Shown: positions 13,301 to 64,000 of the stretch, in pieces
Layout of the letters: each line of letters begins with the position of its first letter
Numbering within the stretch: position 1 is the stretch's first letter
Assembly (NCBI GenBank): GCA_964474435.1
Contig: CAYYSI010000001.1
Location: forward strand, 190,647-254,646
Direction: 5' to 3'
Length of the DNA stretch: 64,000 nt
From: an uncultured Candidatus Saccharibacteria bacterium
GTDB taxonomy: Bacteria; Patescibacteriota; Minisyncoccia; Phycocordibacterales; UBA9973
The notes under the pieces: generated by a model
What the model was told of the DNA's origin: nothing
Seen by the model: only the letters and a program-made list of their open reading frames with translations
Databases searched by the model: none
Program-made: the position numbers and the translations under genes

Positions 13301-13759
13301 ATGGAAGCAAAACTTACGGTACATTCAAGAAAATCAGAAAAAAGGTATGACTTTTCATTCAGAATTTATAAATCTGAAAAGGTAGACGATTTACAAATTG
13401 AACCAGGGTTTTATGAGCAACATTCTTCACTTCCTGAGGGTATACACTACGAAATAGAGATTATTTCTCCTGACATTAAAAGTTTTCCGTATGCTAAAAA
13501 GATTCATTATCACACTTCAGCAAAGAGTTCAAAAGACTTTATTTGCTGGACTGGGAGTATATCTTCGACACAACAAGTGGTAGGACTAGTTAGCATGTGG
13601 GCCGCAGGTTCTGTACATACCATAGAAACAGGGGAGGATTTTGCGAAGCTTTATAAAAGGCATAATATAAACCTCACAGACCATAGAACTCTTGTGTATT
13701 TACTGAAGAGTGAGCAGTATGGGATCGACATCCCAAAGAGCTCATATAGATTTTTATAA
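13301..13759 (+). CDS. Hypothetical protein (152 aa)
   Basis: ORF followed by a strong terminator. No family recognised. AT-rich. Confidence 0.45.
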   Translation: MEAKLTVHSRKSEKRYDFSFRIYKSEKVDDLQIEPGFYEQHSSLPEGIHYEIEIISPDIKSFPYAKKIHYHTSAKSSKDFICWTGSISSTQQVVGLVSMWAAGSVHTIETGEDFAKLYKRHNINLTDHRTLVYLLKSEQYGIDIPKSSYRFL

Positions 13760-13770
13760 GTAAATATAAA

Positions 13771-13806
13771 AAAGGCTATCGATATTACGATAGCCTTTGT
13801 TTTTTA
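13771..13806 (+). terminator. Rho-independent terminator
   Basis: AAGGCTATCG / CGATAGCCTT stem followed by TGTTTTTTATT. Confidence 0.7.
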
Positions 13807-13855
13807 TTCAACTTCTTTTTCAATAGCTTCAGAAAACTTTTGGGGTGCGTATTTT

Positions 13856-14302
13856 GTGAGTATACCTACTAGTGCTGACTTCACAAATCATTATCGTGAA
13901 CTAGATACGATGAATCGTTTTAGCGCATTTCATGGGTATTTTTCAATTTATGAATCAACAATAAGAGTGTTGGTAAATATTATAGATCCACTAGCTTGTA
14001 ATAACGGTAAGGCAAATTTTAATAGTGTTCTAAACTGGCTTGTTGCCAGAACCAGATTTAATCAAAGATATAATGACTTTCTTGAGTTATTACGTTTAAC
14101 GAGAAACACTGTTCATCATAATGGAGTTTATAGGCCAGAAAGGGGAGGTGACAAAGTCATTCCTTATAAAGGAGGAGTATATGAATTCAATATAGGACAA
14201 CCTATCATTTTTGCTGGCTGGGAATTTATGATAATGCTACAAAATGATCTCATTGAATTCTTTTTAGAACTAGTGGAAGAACCTGTAATCACTAATATTT
14301 AG
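13856..14302 (+). CDS. Hypothetical small protein with a possible HEPN-like Rx4H motif (RNTVHH)
   Basis: ORF only. The motif LRLTRNTVHHNG resembles a HEPN Rx4-6H signature. The start may be the ATG at 13910 (MNRFSAF). Confidence 0.4.
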   Translation: MSIPTSADFTNHYRELDTMNRFSAFHGYFSIYESTIRVLVNIIDPLACNNGKANFNSVLNWLVARTRFNQRYNDFLELLRLTRNTVHHNGVYRPERGGDKVIPYKGGVYEFNIGQPIIFAGWEFMIMLQNDLIEFFLELVEEPVITNI

Positions 14303-16622: not shown

Positions 16623-17876
16623 TTACTTATTGAACAATCCGATTGCAGTTTCGAGCTGGGCATCTTTGCCGTCTTTGAGTTCGGTAAACGGGATTTTCAC
16701 GGTCGGTGTGAGTCCACTATCTGAGATAGACGTTCCTTTTGGCGTGTACCATTTTGCAATCGTTACCTTCAATGATGTGTCCCTTGTGAGCTTGATGACT
16801 TCTTGGACGGAGCCCTTGCCATATGTTTGCTCGCCAACAAGCACGCCGATCCCCTGCTCTGACAATGCACCAGCAAGAATTTCTGATGCTGAAGCAGAGC
16901 CTTTGTCTGCAAGAATGATGAGTTTTGATTTCTTGGGGAATAAGAGTGGACCACTACTCGTGTGCACACTAACGTCCTTGGGATCTTTGCCTATTTCTTT
17001 GACGATCGTTTCGCCTTCCGGAATGAACCACCCGCCAATCGTCACTGCCGCATCGAGATATCCGCCAGGATTGCCACGCAGGTCAAGAAGGAGGTTTGGG
17101 TACCCAGAAGCAACGTATTCTTGGAGTGCCTGATGGAAGAGTTGTGGTGATTGTGCCGAAAAATTATAGAGATGAATGATGAAAGTCTTTTGATCAGGAC
17201 GACTTTCGGTGTCGACTGTTGGGAGGTCGATTTGTTCACGGACGACGTCATACTTTTTGGGTGCTGCAAGTCCTTCTCGAACAACAGTGATTGCAACACT
17301 GGTACCTGCCTTGCCGCGAATAAGCGTGATCGCCTTGTCGATCGTAAGGTCGTTGGTTGTAGTGTCATCGATTTTTACGATCTTGTCGCCACTTTTGATA
17401 CCAGCTCGATCCGCAGGAGTATTCTTGAGTGGTGCGATGACGGTCAGCACACCATCCTTTTGGCCGATCTCGATTCCGATACCGTTAAATGTACCAGAAA
17501 TTTCACTTTCAAAAATAGAATTTTCTGATGGTGGGAAGAAGGTCGTATACGGATCATTGAATGAGCCAAGCATGCCCTTGATCGCGCCGTACATGCGGTC
17601 TTGGCTACTTATTTTATCTGCACCAGCAAATTTCTCATCAACGATTGCCCATGCCTTCCAAAACGGATCAAAGTCAGTCGTCGCAGTGACCGCTGATTCT
17701 TTGTGAATGACTCCCGTGATCTTGTCAGTAGCAGGACGGTTTTGATAGCCGATGTACACTCCACCAAAAAAGATCCCAACGACGACAATGATGCCGACAA
17801 ATAGTTTGACCCCCGTTGTCACATGTCCGCCGCGTTGTGTTGTTTCAATGTTATCCATGGAGTGTTGTTGGTTCAT
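16623..17876 (-). CDS. ctpA: Carboxyl-terminal processing protease (S41 family, PDZ domain)
   Basis: PDZ segment GIGIEIG...GDKIVKIDD and S41 core LLLDLRGNPGGYL. N-terminal TM helix. Confidence 0.85.
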   Translation of the reverse strand: MNQQHSMDNIETTQRGGHVTTGVKLFVGIIVVVGIFFGGVYIGYQNRPATDKITGVIHKESAVTATTDFDPFWKAWAIVDEKFAGADKISSQDRMYGAIKGMLGSFNDPYTTFFPPSENSIFESEISGTFNGIGIEIGQKDGVLTVIAPLKNTPADRAGIKSGDKIVKIDDTTTNDLTIDKAITLIRGKAGTSVAITVVREGLAAPKKYDVVREQIDLPTVDTESRPDQKTFIIHLYNFSAQSPQLFHQALQEYVASGYPNLLLDLRGNPGGYLDAAVTIGGWFIPEGETIVKEIGKDPKDVSVHTSSGPLLFPKKSKLIILADKGSASASEILAGALSEQGIGVLVGEQTYGKGSVQEVIKLTRDTSLKVTIAKWYTPKGTSISDSGLTPTVKIPFTELKDGKDAQLETAIGLFNK

Positions 17877-54857: not shown

Positions 54858-55349
54858 TTAAGCCCAAGAACCATTTCCTGTTGAAGTTAAAAGAGCAATT
54901 CTATCTGACTCAACTTGCATTGCTTCCTCATAAGAATTGTCCAAACAATCAGTGTTTTCCATATTTACTCTATAGATACACACATCATCGTTTTCAACAA
55001 CATAATTGTCATAAAAGTCTTGATACTTTCTTTTGTTTATTACAATGATGTGAGATGGTTTTGTAAGATAATCTTTATAAATTGCTTTGTATAAATTATC
55101 TTCATTTTCAATGTTCACATCACGAATACCCAATTCAATGCTCCAAACTTTATACTGAACAGAAAGTGTAATTTTCCCTGTCTCCGTATCCTCTGGTTCA
55201 TAATGAGGGATTTCTAAACTCCCATTATCTTGCATAAATCTTACAGTTCTTTCAAACTGATAATTTGCACCAGATTGAACGTCTCCTTTTTGTTCAGCCT
55301 TAAAAATGCGTGAAAGTGCTGACTTTCCAATTTGCGAAATAGTTTTCAT
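54858..55349 (-). CDS. Hypothetical protein (163 aa), first gene of the low-GC island
   Basis: ORF only. ~32% GC. Confidence 0.4.
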   Translation of the reverse strand: MKTISQIGKSALSRIFKAEQKGDVQSGANYQFERTVRFMQDNGSLEIPHYEPEDTETGKITLSVQYKVWSIELGIRDVNIENEDNLYKAIYKDYLTKPSHIIVINKRKYQDFYDNYVVENDDVCIYRVNMENTDCLDNSYEEAMQVESDRIALLTSTGNGSWA

Positions 55350-55485
55350 TTTTCAAAGAATTATACCGCAACGTGCGATGCCGAAATAATTTGTTTCCTT
55401 TGTGGCATTCAGGGAGTTTCTCCATTCACCCCATATCTACTAATCAAGGAAGTAGAATAACCTTATGGGTAGTATAGCACAATCG

Positions 55486-55520
55486 CTTGACAATGTCAAG
55501 TATTTGTGATACACTATTCC
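55486..55520 (+). promoter_or_regulatory. Putative promoter/operator: perfect palindrome CTTGACA-a-TGTCAAG overlapping a -35-like TTGACA, followed by TACACT
   Basis: Seen directly in the sequence, upstream of the 92-aa ORF. Confidence 0.35.
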
Positions 55521-55599
55521 TAATGGTGCGTTATGCCCGTTCGTATATGAGGGGTCGTAATCCTCAATAGTTCTTCAAAACAATTTAATACTAATCGTT

Positions 55600-55878
55600 A
55601 TGATTATTACTTATCGTATTACCGAAGGTCCGTCAAAGTTTGACTTAATGTCTAGTTTGTTTGATGGAAAAGTTGTTCAGTTTACTCAAGAAATTGAGTC
55701 AAATAAAAAGACAATCAAAGCTACCATTACCGCAATTGAAATGGAAGATGGAAGCCACGACTCTTGGAACATAAAAATGTTAGTAAGGGAAAGCAATACA
55801 ACTTCAATCCAAGTTGGAAGAAGTTTATCGGCTTATTACAGTAGCCGAAACAGACAAGGCAACATCAGGCTGAGTTAA
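55600..55878 (+). CDS. Hypothetical protein (92 aa)
   Basis: ORF only. Confidence 0.35.
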   Translation: MIITYRITEGPSKFDLMSSLFDGKVVQFTQEIESNKKTIKATITAIEMEDGSHDSWNIKMLVRESNTTSIQVGRSLSAYYSSRNRQGNIRLS

Positions 55879-56035
55879 TAATAATTTTTATAACTACTGG
55901 CATCTCTCCAGTAATTGTCATAGACAAGAGAAAATATAACTCAAGACCCTTATCTTTATAGATAAGGGCTTGTTTATTTTTACCCCACACTATGCATCAC
56001 TATTCTTTAGGAGTTTCCCGACATTATAGGAATAT

Positions 56036-56227
56036 CTATTTATCCAGTTTATCACTGTTATCCTTATTGATTTCGGTGATATTTTTGTTTTTTATTTCAT
56101 CTAACCACATATTGAAAAATATATCAGCCGTTTGTTCCATATTGTCTTTAAGTTTGATTATCTGTTCTTCCGTAAGCTCCTTTGCTTCATCTCCCAAACT
56201 ATTTTTGAACTCTTGAAGTGTCATCAT
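56036..56227 (-). CDS. Small hypothetical protein (63 aa) downstream of res
   Basis: ORF only. A second ~53-aa ORF (56197-56357, minus strand) starts with a TAATG overlap on the res stop codon. Confidence 0.3.
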   Translation of the reverse strand: MMTLQEFKNSLGDEAKELTEEQIIKLKDNMEQTADIFFNMWLDEIKNKNITEINKDNSDKLDK

Positions 56228-56356
56228 TTTCTTTTATAGGTTTATTATAATTCTCTGGGTTTTGTTTCCTGTCTTCTTTTAGGAGCCAAGAAAAAACATT
56301 GACGACATTTTGTCTTTCTTCTTCGGTCCAAACCTTAGGTTTTCTTAGGTTGTCCA

Positions 56357-58900
56357 TTAGAGAGTTTTAATCATCTCAAATAGTTCTCTCTGTCTTTCTT
56401 GCAGATGAGCATCAAATACAATCTTGTATTCAAAATCTTTATTTACTTTCTGAAAATCTAAGAAGCCAAGCTCTTTTGCAAACACTTCATTAAATAATGA
56501 TGTGTTAGTTCCATCGTAGCGTGTCTTATTTGCTTCATATTCTGTTTTCTCGGACCCAGATTTTACCTCTACTACTAAGAACCTCCCCTTATCTGTTTCT
56601 ATAAGAAAATCTGGGAAATACTTTGATATACGCTGTTCGGCAGGGTTCCAGTATTCAACATAGAAATCGTTATGTGCATCAGTCGTAATACCACCAGTAA
56701 AATAAACATCTTTAATTATTTCATTTTTATCCAAAAGCTGTCGCATATTCTTGAACAAATCTCGTTCATCACTACTATCAAAATTGTAAGGATTGATATG
56801 AAAACCAATACGGCTAGTAGCTCCGCTTGCTTCTTCTTTTTCTTTGAAGACAACAAGAGCTTTTTTGCCCTCCTCTCTGCTCATCTTGAATGGGTATTCC
56901 TTTGTGAGTTCAATTTCTTCTTCGGTGGTTGTCTCTGTCTCCGTATACTGATAAACAGTCTCAAGAACAGTTTGAATAATAAAAGGCAAGAACCCCACAC
57001 TTGTATTCACTTTATTTACCAGTTCACTCCTAGATAATCCTATATTTTCTGATAATTGTCCTACTGCCAAACAAGATAAATGAGTATAGCGATTTATAAG
57101 TTCTACGATTTCATAGTAGGTGTATGAGTTTGTCTCCTTGAGTTTCTTTGAACCGACTGTGTCTTGCTTGAGCACTGCTTTACCAGAAGCATCCATCACA
57201 AGCTCTGAACCCAAGATATAGTGCTCATATTTTTCTGCTTTGTATTTCTTAATATCAATCTTGATGTCGTTTATATTTCTTGCCTCTGTGGCGATAATAT
57301 CTCGGATAAGTTTTTTTACTTTAATGGTTTTTTTCTTTTCAACTTTGATTTCAAACTCAAAACTCTCTTGCTCTTGATTGTTGATGTCTTGAATACTTGA
57401 GGCAAAGTTATTCTTGAGTTCTTTATCTAGGACCTTATAATTTTCTCGTGATAGGAATATGTGAGCTCGTGTAGAATTGTCTCCAATAGAACGCATACAG
57501 CGGGTGGATGCTTGAAGCACGAAGATTGAACTAGATGGTTTACGATATAAAGCACACGCAACGAGAGAGCGACAGTTCCATCCCTCTGTCCCTTTACCAA
57601 CAAGAAGCACAAATTGCTTTTCACTTTCTATTGTATCCAACATCCGAAACTCATCTTTATTATTTTCAGCTTCGGTGTGATATTCAAGAACTTTATCAAT
57701 CGGTATACCCATCTCGGTAAGAACTCTCTCAATACGGGGCTTGAGTTCGTTTCGTAGATTTTCAATGTTTGGAGCATAAAAAGCCATTTTAGGTAGACGA
57801 CCCTCAAGACGATTTTCTTTATATTCGGACCAAAAAGTAGAGAGAACTTCTTCAATAAAAACATTTGAACGGACCTCTCCGAAATCTAGTATTTTCACTT
57901 GCTTCAAGATACCTTTCTCTATTCCTTGCTTGAGCCCGAAATGGTAAACAACATCATCTATCATTCTATTGTTTATATAAGGCGTTCCTGTAAGGTTTAC
58001 AACGCCCACGAGTGGAGTATTGCCGTGTAAATAATCAATCGTCTGGCGTGTTTTCTTCAATGCACCCTCAAGATTTACACCATAGGAATGGTGGGCTTCA
58101 TCAACAAATATGACAAGGTTATTGAGCTCTCGGATGGCACGGAGACGAGCATTTTCTACTTCACGCTTTGCGAGTTCATTTTTATCACCAAATAGTTTTT
58201 TTACCCCACCATCCGTATCACTATTTCTTGTCTTGAGTATTATCTTTTGTGAGTTTGAGACGATGACATTGTAATTACCAATCGGAGAGAGCCCAGTTTC
58301 AGTGCTCTCTAAATAATGATACTTAATGTTAAGTAAAATGTTTTGATATTCTTTTGGTAGGACCTTTGAGTAATCAAAAGTTTTTATTTCTTTCAAACTT
58401 TCTATAATAGTCGTATCGGGAGCAAACACGAGAGCGTTCTTAGCGAAGCGTTTATCATCAGAATGATAATAAGAAAGCACAAAATCGTATATTAAAAATG
58501 TCGCCATTAAAATGGTTTTACCAGAACCCATCGTCAGTGCATATACTTGGTTCGCATAATTTTGAGCACCAAACTTTTCTTTAATGATTTCGGATATTTG
58601 CTCATCACGATTATTGGCTTCCATAATGTCAGAAATTGTTCTCTCTGGCACACCTAAAGAGCGGAGTAAATCAGATTTCTTTGTGAAAGCATCTTGAAAA
58701 ATCTCGCTTGTTGGTTTATTTTTCAAAATCTCTTTTATGTAGATATAAGTTTCAAGAGCTTCAATTTGTGGTTCGTGTAAAAAGCCGACACGCTTTACAT
58801 AATTCAAAATGTTTACACTCTCTTTGAATGCTTCTTTATAGCCGTTTTCTTTCCACTCGGATACTTTACCTTTTATATTTTCAAGAAATGTATTCTCCAT
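56357..58900 (-). CDS. res: Type III restriction enzyme, Res subunit (SF2 helicase + PD-(D/E)xK nuclease)
   Basis: Walker A TMGSGKT and DEAH-like FVDEAHH. C-terminal PDFLIETD...EVK nuclease motif. 847 aa. Confidence 0.8.
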   Translation of the reverse strand: MENTFLENIKGKVSEWKENGYKEAFKESVNILNYVKRVGFLHEPQIEALETYIYIKEILKNKPTSEIFQDAFTKKSDLLRSLGVPERTISDIMEANNRDEQISEIIKEKFGAQNYANQVYALTMGSGKTILMATFLIYDFVLSYYHSDDKRFAKNALVFAPDTTIIESLKEIKTFDYSKVLPKEYQNILLNIKYHYLESTETGLSPIGNYNVIVSNSQKIILKTRNSDTDGGVKKLFGDKNELAKREVENARLRAIRELNNLVIFVDEAHHSYGVNLEGALKKTRQTIDYLHGNTPLVGVVNLTGTPYINNRMIDDVVYHFGLKQGIEKGILKQVKILDFGEVRSNVFIEEVLSTFWSEYKENRLEGRLPKMAFYAPNIENLRNELKPRIERVLTEMGIPIDKVLEYHTEAENNKDEFRMLDTIESEKQFVLLVGKGTEGWNCRSLVACALYRKPSSSIFVLQASTRCMRSIGDNSTRAHIFLSRENYKVLDKELKNNFASSIQDINNQEQESFEFEIKVEKKKTIKVKKLIRDIIATEARNINDIKIDIKKYKAEKYEHYILGSELVMDASGKAVLKQDTVGSKKLKETNSYTYYEIVELINRYTHLSCLAVGQLSENIGLSRSELVNKVNTSVGFLPFIIQTVLETVYQYTETETTTEEEIELTKEYPFKMSREEGKKALVVFKEKEEASGATSRIGFHINPYNFDSSDERDLFKNMRQLLDKNEIIKDVYFTGGITTDAHNDFYVEYWNPAEQRISKYFPDFLIETDKGRFLVVEVKSGSEKTEYEANKTRYDGTNTSLFNEVFAKELGFLDFQKVNKDFEYKIVFDAHLQERQRELFEMIKTL

Positions 58901-58904
58901 AGCG

Positions 58905-60668
58905 TTATGCGGTTATTTCAAAAGTTTCAAAACATTCTTCTCCGAGAACATCTACAATTTTGACTGCTACGGTATATTTGCCTTTCTTTGAATACTCCCA
59001 AGTGTAGTCAGCTTTGACGAGCTCACGCTTTGTTGGTAGGTCCATAATCTCCGCATTGAATAGGTCGCCAGTATAATCTACATCAATCGCCACACTATCA
59101 ATAATCTGACGGAAATCTTCTACTTTCGCTTGGTATTCTTTCTTGATGGCTTTACTATTTTCAATCTCTAATTTTCGCATCAGTATCGGTGAATAGAACT
59201 CTTTGAGTGATACAGAAAGTTTTTTATCTTTAGCTTTGACTGTAATCATCGCTTCTGGTGGCTTCTTGAATACAAGATTTTTCTTGTCTGTGGTAATATC
59301 TCGGACATCAATTTTTACTCCTGTTTTATTTTCCTTTTTAAGATAATCAGCGACTTCAAGGTCCATACCAGAACAGATAACAAGGACACCCTCGTCATAT
59401 ACTGGCTCGCCAGATTTTGATTTCTTTTTTACTGTAAAATCAGCGAGTTTATCACTAACATTTTTTAGTAAAGTTTTCATATCTAGCTTATTGAGAACTC
59501 TGTTCATAGGCATTACCTTTACATAGGAAGTATCAAGCACACCATCAAAATAGCTTCGCTTCATTGGTTCTACTCCATACATCTCCATTACTATTTCTTT
59601 CGCTTCAAGCTCGTTCTTAAACGCCGTATATTCATTCACATTAAGAACCTTGAAACCAGTGGCACCTTTTTGCTCATCAATAATCTGATTAAGTCGTTTT
59701 GTAGAAGTTTGTATTGCTCCGAGATTTATGTCGCATCCAATCCATCTGCGACCTAGCTTTTGAGATACAGCACAAGTGGTCCCAGAACCAACAAAACAAT
59801 CAAGAACTAAATCACCCTCATTTGATGCGATGTTTATAAGTAGTTCTAGTAGTCCCTCTGGTTTTTGTGTAGGATAATCTGTTCTTTCGCTTGATAGGTT
59901 TAATACAGGTCTAGTATTAAAAGTTATAATCTTACCATCTTTATTTACTGTATTTATCAATCCCTCAAAAACATCTCTCAAGATTGTGTCTACATAAAAA
60001 CGACCCTGTTCATCTTGTAAACTACCCATAAATGATTTCTCAAGATACTGTCTTTCACCTTGACTGTGAACTTCAAAGGTATTATTTTTTCTATAAAAAA
60101 GAATTGTGTCGTGCTTTTTAGGTAAGCTCTCTTTTCTTGAAGCACCACCAGAGCGATATGACCAAACTATCTCATTTACAAAATTATCTTCACCAAAAAC
60201 TTCGTCCATAGTTAAACGTAAATGTGAGTTTTTATGCCAATCGCAATGTAAATAAATTGCTCCTTTATCAGAGAGTAATTCTTTCAGAATTAAAAGGCGT
60301 TCATACATAAATTGAAGATACTCATCTTTTTCCCAAATATCTCCATATTGCTTTTCTTCAAGCAAACTATGATTTTCTCCCTCAACTTTTTCTCCCTTAA
60401 ATTGTATTTTGCGAATATAATCAGCTTTACTATCAAACGGAGGGTCTATATATATTAAATCTACTTTGCCACGATACTCTTTGAGTAAATGTGCAAGAAC
60501 TTGGAGATTATCTCCCCAAAATAATTTATTAAAATCTGGCGACTTTTTATTACCATATATTTCTTTTTCTTGAGCAGGATAATACTCAATACTCTCCAAA
60601 GGTTTCTTGCCAGCCCATACGAGCATAGCCCTGCCTTTGGCTTTTTCTATTGATTGTAATTTTTGCAT
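58905..60668 (-). CDS. mod: Type III R-M DNA methyltransferase, Mod subunit
   Basis: VDLIYIDPPF catalytic motif, AdoMet-binding region, and a central target-recognition region. Immediately upstream of res. Confidence 0.8.
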   Translation of the reverse strand: MQKLQSIEKAKGRAMLVWAGKKPLESIEYYPAQEKEIYGNKKSPDFNKLFWGDNLQVLAHLLKEYRGKVDLIYIDPPFDSKADYIRKIQFKGEKVEGENHSLLEEKQYGDIWEKDEYLQFMYERLLILKELLSDKGAIYLHCDWHKNSHLRLTMDEVFGEDNFVNEIVWSYRSGGASRKESLPKKHDTILFYRKNNTFEVHSQGERQYLEKSFMGSLQDEQGRFYVDTILRDVFEGLINTVNKDGKIITFNTRPVLNLSSERTDYPTQKPEGLLELLINIASNEGDLVLDCFVGSGTTCAVSQKLGRRWIGCDINLGAIQTSTKRLNQIIDEQKGATGFKVLNVNEYTAFKNELEAKEIVMEMYGVEPMKRSYFDGVLDTSYVKVMPMNRVLNKLDMKTLLKNVSDKLADFTVKKKSKSGEPVYDEGVLVICSGMDLEVADYLKKENKTGVKIDVRDITTDKKNLVFKKPPEAMITVKAKDKKLSVSLKEFYSPILMRKLEIENSKAIKKEYQAKVEDFRQIIDSVAIDVDYTGDLFNAEIMDLPTKRELVKADYTWEYSKKGKYTVAVKIVDVLGEECFETFEITA

Positions 60669-60729
60669 AGTGTGGGCAACCCTATGACTTGAAGTCCGTT
60701 ATTTATAATAAAAAAACCAAAATGGACAC

Positions 60730-60870
60730 CCCAAGACAGGTGCCCACAAGCTGACAACAAACGTCGCCAATCCTGTATTCCTGCTTAGAATGTCCATTCT
60801 AGACAGGATTAGCGACAAAGAGCTGTCAGCTCTAATTTATATATCAACTTGTGGGCATATAAACTATACC
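60730..60870. repeat. Large nested imperfect palindrome in the mod / 808-aa-gene divergent intergenic region
   Basis: Outer arms GCCCACAAG...CTTGTGGGC, middle arms TCGCCAATCCTGT / ACAGGATTAGCGA, inner CTTAGAATG-t-CCATTCTAG. Confidence 0.55.
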
Positions 60871-60943
60871 AAAAATTACTTAATTTTCATAGTAAAAAAT
60901 GGTAGAATGTTGATGTTTTTAAGATAAATTACAATTACACTAT

Positions 60944-63370
60944 ATGTCTAAAATAAAACCGATAGACGATGAAGACGATAAATCAATTTGGGATGGGATA
61001 GATTTTTCAAATAGCCAGAACAAACTCTGGTTCTCTATTGATTTCTTGGGAAGGATTGGGATTTTGGAAGAAAAGGAAATAACGAAACTCAAAAAAGATG
61101 ATATAGATTATTTGCTTGTTGGGGTTATTAAACAAGAGTATCAGAAAGGCGGAAAGAAAAAGTTTGAAATTATTCACACTACAACAACATTGGACCTTAT
61201 AAGTGGAGATTTCCAAATACAAAAAACAAAAACTATTTCTATTGAAGACATCAAAAAAGATTACGAGGAAACTCTATTTCATATTTATATTGAAAGCATT
61301 CAATCTCCACAATCAGAGATTTTGCGTTTCGTGAAAGGTTCTAATTTTCTCAAAGTTTCAACTCAAAAAATTGAAGGAAATCTTTTGTTTCTTTTAATGA
61401 AGAATAAACTTGATGACATAATCCCGAACTATGATGATGATTACTGGCATAAGTCATTTATTCTACGAAAAATCTTGGACCTTTATGATGAAAAGCCAGA
61501 GAAATTGATGCTTGCAAAACAAGAATATGTTGAGCTTTATTTTGAGAAAGAAACAAATCTGCTCAAGAGGTTTAATCTTGCAAAAAAAGTGTTGATGAAA
61601 AATCCTAAATACGAGCCAGCATTGAAAGCTACTTTTGATTACTACACAAAGTCAGACAATCAAGAGATTGAGGATTTCAAAAAGTTTTACAATGAGAACT
61701 ACGAAGAATTGAAAAGTGTCCTCCATTCAAACGATTTTATTCGCCTGTCTTTTGTTTTCTTTTTGAAAAGCAAACAGTTTGATATGTGTGAGGAGCTACT
61801 GAAAAGAGAACTTATTATTCATACCCCGTGGAACTATTTGAAAGATAATATCAACTCATACTTGCGAGGTGTTCTATATTACGAACAAGAAAACTATAAC
61901 GATAGTTTGCGTTATTTCAAGGAAACTGTTGAGAATGTTGGGGATACAGAATTGCTCTTAGGATGCCACATCTATATGTTTTCTATCTATTTGAAACTCA
62001 AGGATGGTATTGGTATTGAGAATACTCTATCCCATATGTGCAGACAGATTGAAAGCATAACTATGAACGATTATTTTGTATTTCAAATGGAACTACCAAC
62101 AAAACAATTCTTTCTTGATGAAATCCAATATGCAATCAAAAATAATGTCAGCGACAAAACTAGGTTGACGGCAATTTATCTTTTCAAGAAGTTTCTTTAC
62201 CAAGACGAGACTATATTGTCAGAAAATAATAGAAAAGAGATTGAAGAGCTACTCAATGAAATAAAGAAGAACACAAAAGAAAATCTCTTTGACCTATACC
62301 TACTTGCTCACGGATATTATCGTATAGACCAATATGACAATGCTGTTATCTATAAGCTCAAGTATGTTCTTACTGGTGGAAAAGAATGGATTTTTACTGA
62401 TATTGCAGAATGTAGCGAGGACTTTTTGTATGACTATGCAACAACTATCAGAAATGAAATCACAAAACCACCAAGTCGTGATGTGCGAGTAGAAAGATAT
62501 TTCAAGGAGATGTTCAGCAAAGACATTGAAGAACTTTTCAAGAAAAAACAATACGACACAATTTCTGATATTTACTCTTTGCTTGAGGGTCCAGCATTGG
62601 AACTATTTTTCTGTCCCGAAGAACTTGAGGACGGATATACTTTCTTTGATAGAAGGTTTGAGGTTGCCTATTCTCTCAATGAGGTGGAGAAGACGAATGA
62701 AGCTCAAAAGGTTTACGAGAGCATTGAGGACCCAAGTTCTTCAGTATTGAACAATCTTGCTTTGATATACGAAGGACAAGGAGATATAAAGAAGGCAAGG
62801 GAAACTATCACAAGAGCCATTGAACTAACTGATGGAAAACAAGAACTAATAAACAGAAATAAAGAAAGGATGTTCTCTGTGAAGAAAAGCAATACTCTAA
62901 AAAACAAAAGAGCCGAAGTAGCTCAAAAACCAAAACTGAACTGGTCCGATATTGAAATCAAGTTTACAGATGATAATAACATTGAAATCTATACCAAAGG
63001 AAAACTCTCAACCAAAGGTGATTATGAAACTTTTGGCTTCAAAAAACCGAACAATATATCTTGGGAGATACTACGGGCACTTTCAATCACTAAAACCAAA
63101 ATAAAAGGAAATATGGAGTTTTATTTGACCCCAGATAATATGTTCAGCAAAGATGCTTTCAAATATAAAACTAACAAGAAAAATCTATTCCAAAAATATA
63201 AATCAATTTTATCAAAAGCACTGTGTGAACATTTTGATATAACAGAAGAACCAATACCTTTTGATAAAGCCGTGCAGGGATACAATCCTCTATTAAAAAT
63301 CACTCCAGAGAAGGACTTGAGAAGTCTTGAAATACAAGACACCAGAGCATCAGAATACACTGAAATATAA
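60944..63370 (+). CDS. Large hypothetical protein (808 aa), alpha-helical with TPR-like repeats
   Basis: Long ORF, ~30% GC. TPR-like segment (VLNNLALIYEGQGDIKKARETITRAIEL). No catalytic motif recognised. Divergent from the Type III R-M operon. Confidence 0.5.
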   Translation: MSKIKPIDDEDDKSIWDGIDFSNSQNKLWFSIDFLGRIGILEEKEITKLKKDDIDYLLVGVIKQEYQKGGKKKFEIIHTTTTLDLISGDFQIQKTKTISIEDIKKDYEETLFHIYIESIQSPQSEILRFVKGSNFLKVSTQKIEGNLLFLLMKNKLDDIIPNYDDDYWHKSFILRKILDLYDEKPEKLMLAKQEYVELYFEKETNLLKRFNLAKKVLMKNPKYEPALKATFDYYTKSDNQEIEDFKKFYNENYEELKSVLHSNDFIRLSFVFFLKSKQFDMCEELLKRELIIHTPWNYLKDNINSYLRGVLYYEQENYNDSLRYFKETVENVGDTELLLGCHIYMFSIYLKLKDGIGIENTLSHMCRQIESITMNDYFVFQMELPTKQFFLDEIQYAIKNNVSDKTRLTAIYLFKKFLYQDETILSENNRKEIEELLNEIKKNTKENLFDLYLLAHGYYRIDQYDNAVIYKLKYVLTGGKEWIFTDIAECSEDFLYDYATTIRNEITKPPSRDVRVERYFKEMFSKDIEELFKKKQYDTISDIYSLLEGPALELFFCPEELEDGYTFFDRRFEVAYSLNEVEKTNEAQKVYESIEDPSSSVLNNLALIYEGQGDIKKARETITRAIELTDGKQELINRNKERMFSVKKSNTLKNKRAEVAQKPKLNWSDIEIKFTDDNNIEIYTKGKLSTKGDYETFGFKKPNNISWEILRALSITKTKIKGNMEFYLTPDNMFSKDAFKYKTNKKNLFQKYKSILSKALCEHFDITEEPIPFDKAVQGYNPLLKITPEKDLRSLEIQDTRASEYTEI

Positions 63371-63511: not shown

Positions 63512-63799
63512 ATGCAAAAAGCACATAAAACAAAAAATGACTTTGAGTATATCCAGTCAGAAAACTCAAAAGAGTTTTTTCAAAGTGCAGATTTAGGTCT
63601 CGCTACCGCACTATGTTGTAGAGGATACAGTCTCATAACATTAGACAAACAAGACCCTCGTAAGGTTTCTTTTATATTCAAACGAGAGGTCGGGATAGAA
63701 GAAGATGCCGATGCTTATTGGTCCAATGAATTGGAAACCAAAGCACGGAATTATTTTGATAATTTGCGAACATTAAAAAATCGCATCTACTCTGAATAA
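63512..63799 (+). CDS. DUF5659-like small protein
   Basis: 95 aa with the LATALCCRGYSL...VSFIFKRE...AYWSNE pattern, typical of small phage/plasmid-associated proteins. Confidence 0.4.
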   Translation: MQKAHKTKNDFEYIQSENSKEFFQSADLGLATALCCRGYSLITLDKQDPRKVSFIFKREVGIEEDADAYWSNELETKARNYFDNLRTLKNRIYSE

Positions 63800-63824
63800 A
63801 TTACTCACCAATAAATTACAATAT

Positions 63825-64000
63825 ATGACTACAAAAATAACTATACAAGAATATCTCTCACAGAAAAGCATTACCTATCGTGAGAGCGGACAGGAACTCA
63901 TTACGAAGTGTATATTCAATGACTGTGATAGAGATAGTGGCGAAAGCGAAGCACATCTTTATTTCAACAAAGATACCTCGCAATATGAGTGTAAAAAATG
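63825..64000 (+). CDS. Primase-like protein, N-terminal CHC2 zinc finger (partial, continues beyond the window)
   Basis: CIFNDCD...EAHLYF...YECKKC resembles the zf-CHC2 motif of DnaG/phage-type primases. Confidence 0.45.
   Translation, partial: MTTKITIQEYLSQKSITYRESGQELITKCIFNDCDRDSGESEAHLYFNKDTSQYECKK

Follow-up and report, generated by a model that had tools for sequence, protein, structure and literature searches.

The window analysed here is a stretch of 64,000 nucleotides from an uncultured Candidatus Saccharibacteria bacterium (contig CAYYSI010000001.1, positions 190,647 to 254,646). An island with a GC content of 33-37%, vs 40-50% in the remaining window, extends from ~54.5 kb to the window end. 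The gene studied here, referred to as “gene-1”, lies in this island: its open reading frame (ORF) runs from ATG to stop at 60944-63370 (+) and encodes 808 aa. A preliminary description of this DNA had presented the product as a large alpha-helical, TPR-like protein with no recognisable enzymatic motif, divergent from a Type III restriction-modification (R-M) operon in a mobile island and followed by a DUF5659 gene, and had proposed it as a candidate phage-defence component or sensor. The reading frame, the nature of the protein and its setting all hold in the analysis reported below; the defence role does not fare as well.

Leftward, gene-1 diverges from two genes on the minus strand, the Type III mod (587 aa, 58905-60668 (-); N6_N4_Mtase, E 1.4e-46; PADLOC MTase_III, E 3.2e-73) and res (847 aa, 56357-58900 (-); ResIII, E 1.8e-9). 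The C-terminus of res has a weak TnsA-like nuclease match, and the protein also matches the NCBIfam BPTD_3080 restriction endonuclease weakly, far under the cutoff. Mod and gene-1 are separated by a shared control region of 275 nt (60669-60943), recognised by its sequence conservation and promoter-like sites. Rightward, gene-1 is followed by the DUF5659 gene (95 aa, 63512-63799 (+); Pfam E 1.7e-8) and by the start of a gene for a 723-aa DnaG-like primase (63825-64000 (+), a phmmer match to the window end), of which only the first 176 nt are within the window. The complete primase gene, in the related locus L001, displays Toprim_2 and distant matches to annotated phage primases. DUF5659 has no match in the PDB, and literature searches found nothing on it, on elements of this kind or on TPR proteins as partners of Type III R-M.

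Gene-1 and its relatives

The ATG start of gene-1 is supported by its N-terminus, MSKI(K/E)P, which is conserved in 15 homologues. A word-indexed search of 5.8 billion proteins gave 16 clusters of homologues, with identities of 58-100% and every one full-length, so gene-1 is clearly under selection. They are annotated only as “TPR repeat protein” or “hypothetical”. The family grew to 190 matches (E <= 0.001) when 1.84 billion representatives were searched exhaustively with HMMER; these matches fall into three groups. The first is composed of proteins of 700-770 aa aligning to aa ~190-665 of gene-1, the small N-terminal domain being also shared in the alignment. The second, ~30 proteins of 220-450 aa, shares only the C-terminal ~140 residues of gene-1; their N-terminal parts are unrelated, and Pfam matches none of these proteins. 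In the third, many proteins are ~410-430 aa long and only aa ~511-650 of gene-1 are in common.

Relatives at 81-86% identity come from Patescibacteria genome bins, and one at 25% from a Paceibacterota bin. No phage, plasmid or viral relative was found by tblastn against 50,697 GenBank phage records and 72,556 PLSDB plasmid records, or in IMG/VR. A phage origin of gene-1 thus finds no support in these collections.

A TPR solenoid and its conserved module

Between aa ~125 and ~645 (61316-62878 (+)) gene-1 is a TPR-like alpha-solenoid, as indicated by a helix-only model, Pfam and Foldseek. Pfam TPR_2 and TPR_1 both match at aa 601-629 (E 2.4e-10, 40.2 bits vs a cutoff of 27, and E 9.6e-9, 35.1 bits vs a cutoff of 27.8, respectively) and a weaker TPR match is found at aa 309-330, while the NCBIfam matches are TPR families only, all sub-threshold. 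In the PDB, a sequence search retrieves nothing other than designed consensus TPR. The full-length AlphaFold model is poor overall (predicted local distance difference test, pLDDT, 57.5) because further word-indexed homologue searches returned almost nothing new. It is almost wholly helical over aa ~100-645, and its well-predicted regions are aa ~25-120 (pLDDT 80-87) and a TPR stretch at aa ~230-370. Foldseek of this low-confidence model gives TPR superhelices only (OGT, Ctr9 and consensus TPR; probability 0.98-1.0). The region at aa ~25-120 (61016-61303 (+)) is an alpha/beta domain of three long strands plus helices. This N-terminal domain has no sequence match in the PDB and not a single invariant polar residue in the alignment of the broad gene-1 family.

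The most conserved part of the protein is a module at aa 511-645 (62474-62878 (+)) with the pattern FEVAYSL...SSSVLNNLALIYE...N..R. In a 30-sequence alignment of the family, 15 of the 18 invariant or near-invariant columns fall within aa 519-642, and the same alignment has no conserved catalytic-looking motif and, outside the TPR module, no invariant polar motif. Homology searches and structure prediction, by which the preliminary description had suggested looking for a cryptic nuclease or ATPase, found neither: no enzymatic family was detected in Pfam, NCBIfam, PADLOC, or PDB sequence or fold searches, which gave only TPRs, and the idea of a cryptic enzyme domain was therefore abandoned. In particular, no P-loop NTPase (NACHT, NB-ARC or AAA) was found in Pfam or NCBIfam and no invariant Walker-type motif appears in the alignments. 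PADLOC-DB 2.0 gave no family at E <= 1 for gene-1, and none for its 27% relative or for the 431-aa protein described below.

A winged-helix-like domain at the C-terminus

The C-terminal domain of gene-1 (aa 666-797, 62939-63334 (+)) was modelled alone (aa 656-808) from a 28-sequence alignment. This model is confident (pLDDT 81.8; predicted template modelling score, pTM, 0.73) and opens with three strands, continues with two short helices and a long one, and closes with a hairpin, an order compatible with the OmpR/SARP DNA-binding fold. The best PDB folds retrieved by Foldseek are three chains of EmbR (E 0.024-0.065, probability 0.95-0.99, template modelling (TM) score 0.41-0.44), a SARP regulator with an OmpR-type DNA-binding domain. 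The next match is BaeR, and the DNA-binding domain of ArlR appears at rank 47.

The C-terminal domain of gene-1 will be referred to as “type A”, and the different domain that occupies the same position in most family members of 700-770 aa as “type B”. One type B domain passes the Pfam threshold for Trans_reg_C (26.9 vs 26.2 bits, E 5e-6), and the type B profile retrieves six OmpR-family DNA-binding domains from the PDB (best 2hqn, E 0.013). Type A is a sequence family of its own, which is uncurated and has a long tail (DPIPF...GY.P.FKI.P...LR); about 30 other proteins also terminate in it, as does one UG19 reverse transcriptase. From its fold and its position, the C-terminal domain of gene-1 may be a divergent OmpR/SARP-like winged helix.

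The UG19-class reverse transcriptase, P0137 (758 aa), is of a defence-associated kind, and its C-terminal end is the C-terminal domain of gene-1. The alignment of the PADLOC UG19 model spans most of this domain in P0137, so that UG19 enzymes may regularly include it.

Gene order in the related elements

In the related loci the rightward block begins with gene-1 and DUF5659, followed usually by an ORF of 60-75 aa, a primase, 2-3 small proteins and a large serine recombinase. DUF5659 comes directly after gene-1 in every related locus having downstream sequence, and the recombinase is present in nearly every locus extending far enough. The primase slot holds either a DnaG-like primase of 720-740 aa or an unrelated protein of ~460 aa. 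Gene-1 is present in elements without primase (L006, L008 and L010), which argues against a dedicated replication role.

In ten loci (L006, L008, L010, L011, L012, L016, L019, L022, L024 and L025) the recombinase gene, at its 3' end, overlaps with a tRNA gene of the opposite strand or lies immediately beside it, e.g. in L011 at 17716-17788. Such an ending is the signature, on the right side, of an element that has integrated at a tRNA gene. A search of the left side of the elements gave no direct repeat of the tRNA end; serine recombinases use very short cores, so attachment-site repeats are possibly not to be expected.

Two loci, L045 and L046, have in the gene-1 slot a gene for a ~290-aa protein with a type A C-terminal domain and without TPR. 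These genes lie directly before DUF5659, which is followed by a replication protein and a serine recombinase. Upstream, L045 carries two DNA methylase genes and no res, and the L046 contig is too short to tell.

Other features were observed in or beside these elements. A diversity-generating retroelement (reverse transcriptase and bAvd) lies beside the 3' end of res in L004 (2118-3548), L008 (4020-5405) and L009 (525-1910), a place taken in the window by small ORFs of no known kind (54858-56357). In L019 a group I intron (13665-13894; Rfam RF00028, 80.5 bits) is found beside tRNA genes just outside the element.

Mosaic evolution and the link to Type III R-M

The region upstream of gene-1 was surveyed in 14 related loci, i.e. 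13 non-redundant contigs (L007 is L018). Gene-1 is always divergent from mod and co-directional with DUF5659, with a promoter region of its own. Both mod and res are present in 10/14 loci; in 3/14 mod is present on a contig that ends before res, and 1/14 (L012) has neither. L012 is a distant relative, with gene-1, DUF5659 and the recombinase present and a peptidoglycan-binding protein in the place of R-M. The mod genes next to gene-1 are drawn from three R-M lineages: the window type, that of L006 and that of L025, in which an AlbA_2 gene lies between mod and res. The co-occurrence with mod and res, which the preliminary description had named as a check, is seen insofar as mod accompanies gene-1 in 13/14 loci and across three lineages. 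It breaks down in L012, and the adjacency counts are not independent because all related loci descend from one element family.

Disparities appear between the proteins of a given element when each is compared to its counterpart in the window. For L022 and L024 the identities are 59-62% for Res, 62% for Mod, 52% for DUF5659 and 59-61% for the primase, and 27-29% for gene-1. For L006 they are 20% for Res, 25% for Mod, 45% for DUF5659 and 80% for gene-1, the primase being absent. The elements are thus mosaic, with an allele-like divergence of gene-1 inside a conserved backbone.

The conserved module of gene-1 is also found within R-M operons. L030 (3593-8603) and L034 (1346-7086) carry same-strand operons composed of a Type III-like mod, a gene for a 431-aa protein and res. 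The first 160 residues of the 431-aa protein match aa 511-644 of gene-1 (33% identity, E 8e-14), and both Mod (E 1e-137) and Res (E 6e-88) belong to the R-M lineage that adjoins gene-1 in L006. Toward its C-terminus the 431-aa protein displays repeated sub-threshold matches to DUF4145, which we take to be a HEPN-type nuclease fold, and the motif RGFRNLIHPG. These operons may represent an abortive-infection module embedded in R-M. Most of the loci encoding relatives of the 431-aa protein are without a methylase or res gene nearby, so the shared TPR module is not R-M specific, and its tie to R-M is suggestive, not strict. By eye, the middle region of the 431-aa protein has the look of a winged helix, and L034 encodes an extra protein of 168 aa with a weak HEPN-type match.

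The divergent control region and its leader RNA

The structured core of the control region (60715-60865) is 91-99% identical in L008, L010 and L019, whereas the flanking proteins are only ~76-86% identical; the rest of the region also aligns closely among these loci and the window. A promoter-like site for mod is present at 60890->60863 (ATGAAA-16-TATAGT, with a TG-extended -10). For gene-1, the sequence TGgTAGAAT at 60900-60908, read by eye, could be an extended -10.

The same region specifies a structured leader RNA of mod (60722-60857 (-)) whose fold has a z-score of -7.45 relative to shuffles. It contains a terminator-like hairpin followed by a U-run (60747->60722). Two copies of the segment UGCCCACA are present, one at 60857-60850 and the other, 3 nt ahead of the mod AUG, at 60678-60671; the complement of this segment lies between them, at 60748-60741. 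Leaders of this kind lie opposite gene-1 in the window, L008, L010 and L019.

At the same position and on the mod strand, five other loci carry LOOT (Rfam RF03000; 53-75 bits vs a threshold of 46.4), which ends 50-63 nt before the mod start: L004 (9534-9660 (-)), L006 (9758-9880 (-)), L011 (9777-9898 (-)), L022 (7276-7394 (-)) and L024 (5978-6109 (-)). LOOT also lies opposite the TPR-less version of gene-1 in L045 (7763-7879 (-)) and L046 (528-645 (-)), with 87-90 bits. The window leader shares with LOOT its layout only, i.e. the segment, the complement and the second copy at the mod start. It matches neither LOOT nor any other Rfam family even at E 10, and that it is a diverged LOOT was ruled out on this basis.

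In the mod-linked leaders a segment of 8-16 nt pairs with an internal complement, and a second exact copy of the segment lies 2-6 nt before the mod AUG. The segment differs in sequence by lineage: UGCCCACA in the window, CCCAUCCCU in L011, ACCCGACCAA in L004, CCCACCACA in L006, CCCAACCAAGAUAU in L022 and AAAAUCCAUUGCGACA in L024. It corresponds to the 5' arm of the main LOOT helix in L004, L006 and L011. An exact complement is present in the window and L010 as well as in L011, L004 and L006; for L022 and L024 none was found by script, and the pairing appears only in predicted folds. Given the second copy near the mod AUG, the internal complement could also pair there and cover the start site. 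This suggests two alternative pairings, of which one could cover the mod start and the other leave it free.

A small gene of the HTH_17/MerR type (58-82 aa, excisionase-like) was observed on the mod strand in L004 (9684-9932), L024 (6127-6354) and L045 (5754-5930). It lies directly upstream of LOOT and mod in L004 and L024 and is absent from the window.

Short repeats near the start codons

The AATTAC/ATTAC repeat (AAATTACAAT) occurs at three places in the window, always in the sense orientation, and was also detected as an inverted repeat (I6). An AATTAC doublet lies 6-17 nt before the gene-1 start (60927-60938 (+)), a second repeat covers mod codons 2-5 (60653-60662 (-)) and a third lies 6-26 nt before the primase start (63799-63819 (+)). 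In L004, L006, L011, L022 and L024 the ATTAC motif is again found close to where gene-1 and mod start, and in several related loci it also precedes the primase or the small ORF ahead of it. The repeat was found upstream of none of 13 host genes checked, and no Shine-Dalgarno sequence was found in those 13 genes nor in the island genes. The repeat may serve as a signal for translation or as a site bound by a protein, though probably not by the C-terminal domain of gene-1, because it is found with both C-terminal types.

Three copies of the 8-mer TGTGGGCA lie in the control region, and only the four loci that share this region have the 8-mer. It was considered as an operator and rejected, its copies being better explained as RNA helices.

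Gene-1 as a proposed regulator of the element

We propose that gene-1 is the one-component master regulator of an integrative element, and neither an enzyme of defence nor a third subunit of R-M; we give this reading a probability of roughly 45%. The element would be a Patescibacteria element of ~13-15 kb, with a serine recombinase, that inserts next to a tRNA gene, and gene-1 would be its regulator. The C-terminal winged helix would bind DNA, its target site being presumably within the 275-nt divergent region, where back-to-back promoters would drive mod-res leftward and gene-1, DUF5659 and primase rightward. The TPR solenoid would be the input domain, either binding a protein or peptide, the ligand that we infer for gene-1, or mediating oligomerisation. 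This input would set the operons of the element on or off.

The domain layout, the gene order and the mosaic evolution fit a regulator better, because sensor-type repeats are combined with a DNA-binding-like domain without any sign of an enzyme, and because gene-1 heads the rightward block, facing the leftward operon with its leader RNA. The invariable association of gene-1 with DUF5659 and the recombinase, the reuse of the type A domain with other N-terminal parts in the same slot, and the allele-like divergence inside a conserved backbone argue in the same direction. Indeed DUF5659, the serine recombinase and a structured leader RNA are tighter partners of gene-1 than R-M.

Several observations nevertheless weigh against this proposal. 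The winged-helix assignment of the type A domain of gene-1 is based on fold only, with Foldseek E-values of 0.02-0.07, a TM score of ~0.4 and no match at E <= 0.001. None of 28 type A domains matches Pfam Trans_reg_C at E <= 1, a PDB profile search with the type A domain gave no response-regulator match, and the link between types A and B is not significant (hhalign probability 0.3%). No operator was identified from the sequence of the control region: the ATTAC motif is found in elements of both C-terminal types and the repeated 8-mer is absent from L011, whose protein has a type A domain. In addition, gene-1, at 808 residues, would be a large protein for a regulator, and its N-terminal domain is left without explanation. 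Finally, the near-constant adjacency of Type III R-M is not accounted for by the regulator model alone. This adjacency could be functional, or R-M could occupy a cargo slot beside the control region. The adjacency is too constant to be set aside and, with the module found in the operons where another gene lies between mod and res, it keeps a possible sensor or guard role alive.

The alternative that survives best is that gene-1 is a defence accessory linked to R-M, close to what the preliminary description had proposed. Its TPR module would dock on, or watch, the Type III Mod/Res or a phage anti-restriction protein, and gene-1 would serve as a sensor or second line of defence, the output being transcriptional in gene-1 and a nuclease in the 431-aa relatives embedded in mod-res operons. 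Mod adjoins gene-1 divergently in all loci examined upstream of gene-1 except L012, with res confirmed in 10, and this adjacency outlasts both the replacement of R-M by unrelated lineages (L006, L025) and that of gene-1 by a 27%-identical allele (L022, L024). The L006-type R-M occurs elsewhere, in L030 and L034, with the 431-aa protein between mod and res, and this protein combines the module of aa 511-644 with a sub-threshold DUF4145 end. The type A domain also ends a reverse transcriptase of the UG19 defence class, and a strong allele divergence fits a sensor under diversifying selection. We nevertheless consider this reading unlikely. PADLOC recognises neither gene-1 nor its 27% relative nor the 431-aa protein, most loci of the relatives of the latter are without methylase or res nearby, and the adjacency counts come from one element family. 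Gene-1 has no effector domain besides the DNA-binding-like one, which resembles OmpR/SARP domains; its unfailing partners are DUF5659 and the serine recombinase, and L012 keeps all three without R-M. The defence role put forward in the preliminary description is not supported here.

A bolder and more specific version of this alternative has a slim chance of being right. The module at aa 511-645 would be a docking or sensing unit for Type III-like R-M, or for attacking phage proteins, connected to a winged helix in gene-1 and, in the 431-aa proteins, to what may be a DUF4145-like nuclease of the HEPN type. In this view gene-1 would guard R-M and respond through transcription, acting together with the LOOT-type leader RNA that would control mod. 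It would report the state of restriction to the promoters of the element, e.g. for replication, excision or extra defence when restriction is inhibited.

It is also conceivable, though quite unlikely, that gene-1 is a DNA-binding accessory of recombination or replication and not a transcription factor. It could assist the serine recombinase as a directionality or architectural factor, or bind an origin as an initiator acting with DUF5659 and the primase. The universal co-occurrence of DUF5659, the recombinase in nearly every long-enough locus and the position of gene-1 directly upstream of the primase block in the window, L004, L011, L016, L022 and L024 are consistent with such roles, and a winged-helix-like domain would also suit the binding of an origin or att site. 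But gene-1 is kept without primase in L006, L008 and L010, no iteron-like repeats were found beside it, and its position at a divergent promoter region is that of a regulator. Moreover, OmpR-type winged helices point to transcription factors; to our knowledge they are typical of these and not of Rep proteins or known directionality factors.

Least probable is a scaffold or chaperone TPR protein that binds no nucleic acid, its winged-helix resemblance being coincidental and its neighbourhood due to the common descent of one element family: the non-significant fold matches (none at E <= 0.001), the failed sequence tests for Trans_reg_C membership and the poor full-length model (pLDDT 57.5) agree with it, but the top three fold matches are to one DNA-binding domain with a probability of 0.95-0.99, relatives have, at this place, an independent domain that is a true Trans_reg_C, and the type A domain stays in the same genomic slot with unrelated N-terminal parts, which indicates a function tied to the locus.

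The mobile elements of Patescibacteria are almost unstudied, and the core genes of the one described here (gene-1, DUF5659 and the small ORFs) have no known function. If gene-1 is a master regulator, it would provide a handle on the choice of the element between the integrated and the replicating state, on the timing of restriction expression in a new host and on the signal read by the TPR array. If it is a guard of R-M, it would tie restriction systems to transcriptional control in a new way. The analysis also gives a setting to the orphan Rfam motif LOOT, as the leader of the leftward operon, opposite gene-1, with an arm of its main helix repeated at the mod start codon; this could provide a testable idea of its role.

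Comparison with known systems

Gene-1 differs from the systems that associate TPRs or third proteins with defence. Unlike the STAND/Avs-type TPR sensors it has no P-loop NTPase N-terminal to the repeats, and unlike a third subunit of a Type III R-M it lies neither in the mod-res operon nor on the mod strand. In the PrrC/EcoprrI-type arrangement an effector is embedded in an R-M system and controlled by it. The relatives of the conserved module that lie between mod and res in L030 and L034 may be comparable; gene-1 itself is outside the mod-res operon, on the opposite strand, and has no nuclease-like domain.

The C-terminal domain of gene-1 resembles the OmpR/PhoB family (Trans_reg_C) in its predicted fold and in its secondary-structure order, and relatives of gene-1 have a genuine Trans_reg_C at the same position. 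Gene-1 differs from this family by the absence of a receiver domain, by the location of the domain C-terminal to the repeats and by the distinct sequence family of type A. The SARP regulators, such as EmbR of M. tuberculosis and AfsR of Streptomyces, also associate an OmpR-type winged helix with an all-helical TPR-like (BTAD/TPR) region, and HilA joins an OmpR/ToxR-type domain to TPRs. Compared to SARPs the order is reversed in gene-1, TPR first and winged helix last. Gene-1 is also without a BTAD, FHA or NB-ARC match or a sequence-level Trans_reg_C, and it belongs to a Patescibacteria mobile element and not to an antibiotic gene cluster. The novelty of gene-1 lies in the association of TPRs and a putative OmpR-like winged helix in reversed order, with a C-terminal family that is uncurated and an N-terminal domain of no assigned fold.

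The Stl-type master repressors of phage-inducible chromosomal islands and the RNPP/AimR-type TPR receptors have no sequence or fold relationship to gene-1: they have an N-terminal Xre-type helix-turn-helix and 250-400 aa, and no helper phage or signalling peptide is known for gene-1. The likeness is by analogy only. It concerns the divergent control region of a small integrative element with a primase, the extreme divergence between otherwise similar elements and a sensor fused to a DNA-binding domain. By analogy, gene-1 would work like a SARP or HilA, with a logic like that of Stl, whose divergence reflects the sensing of different proteins.

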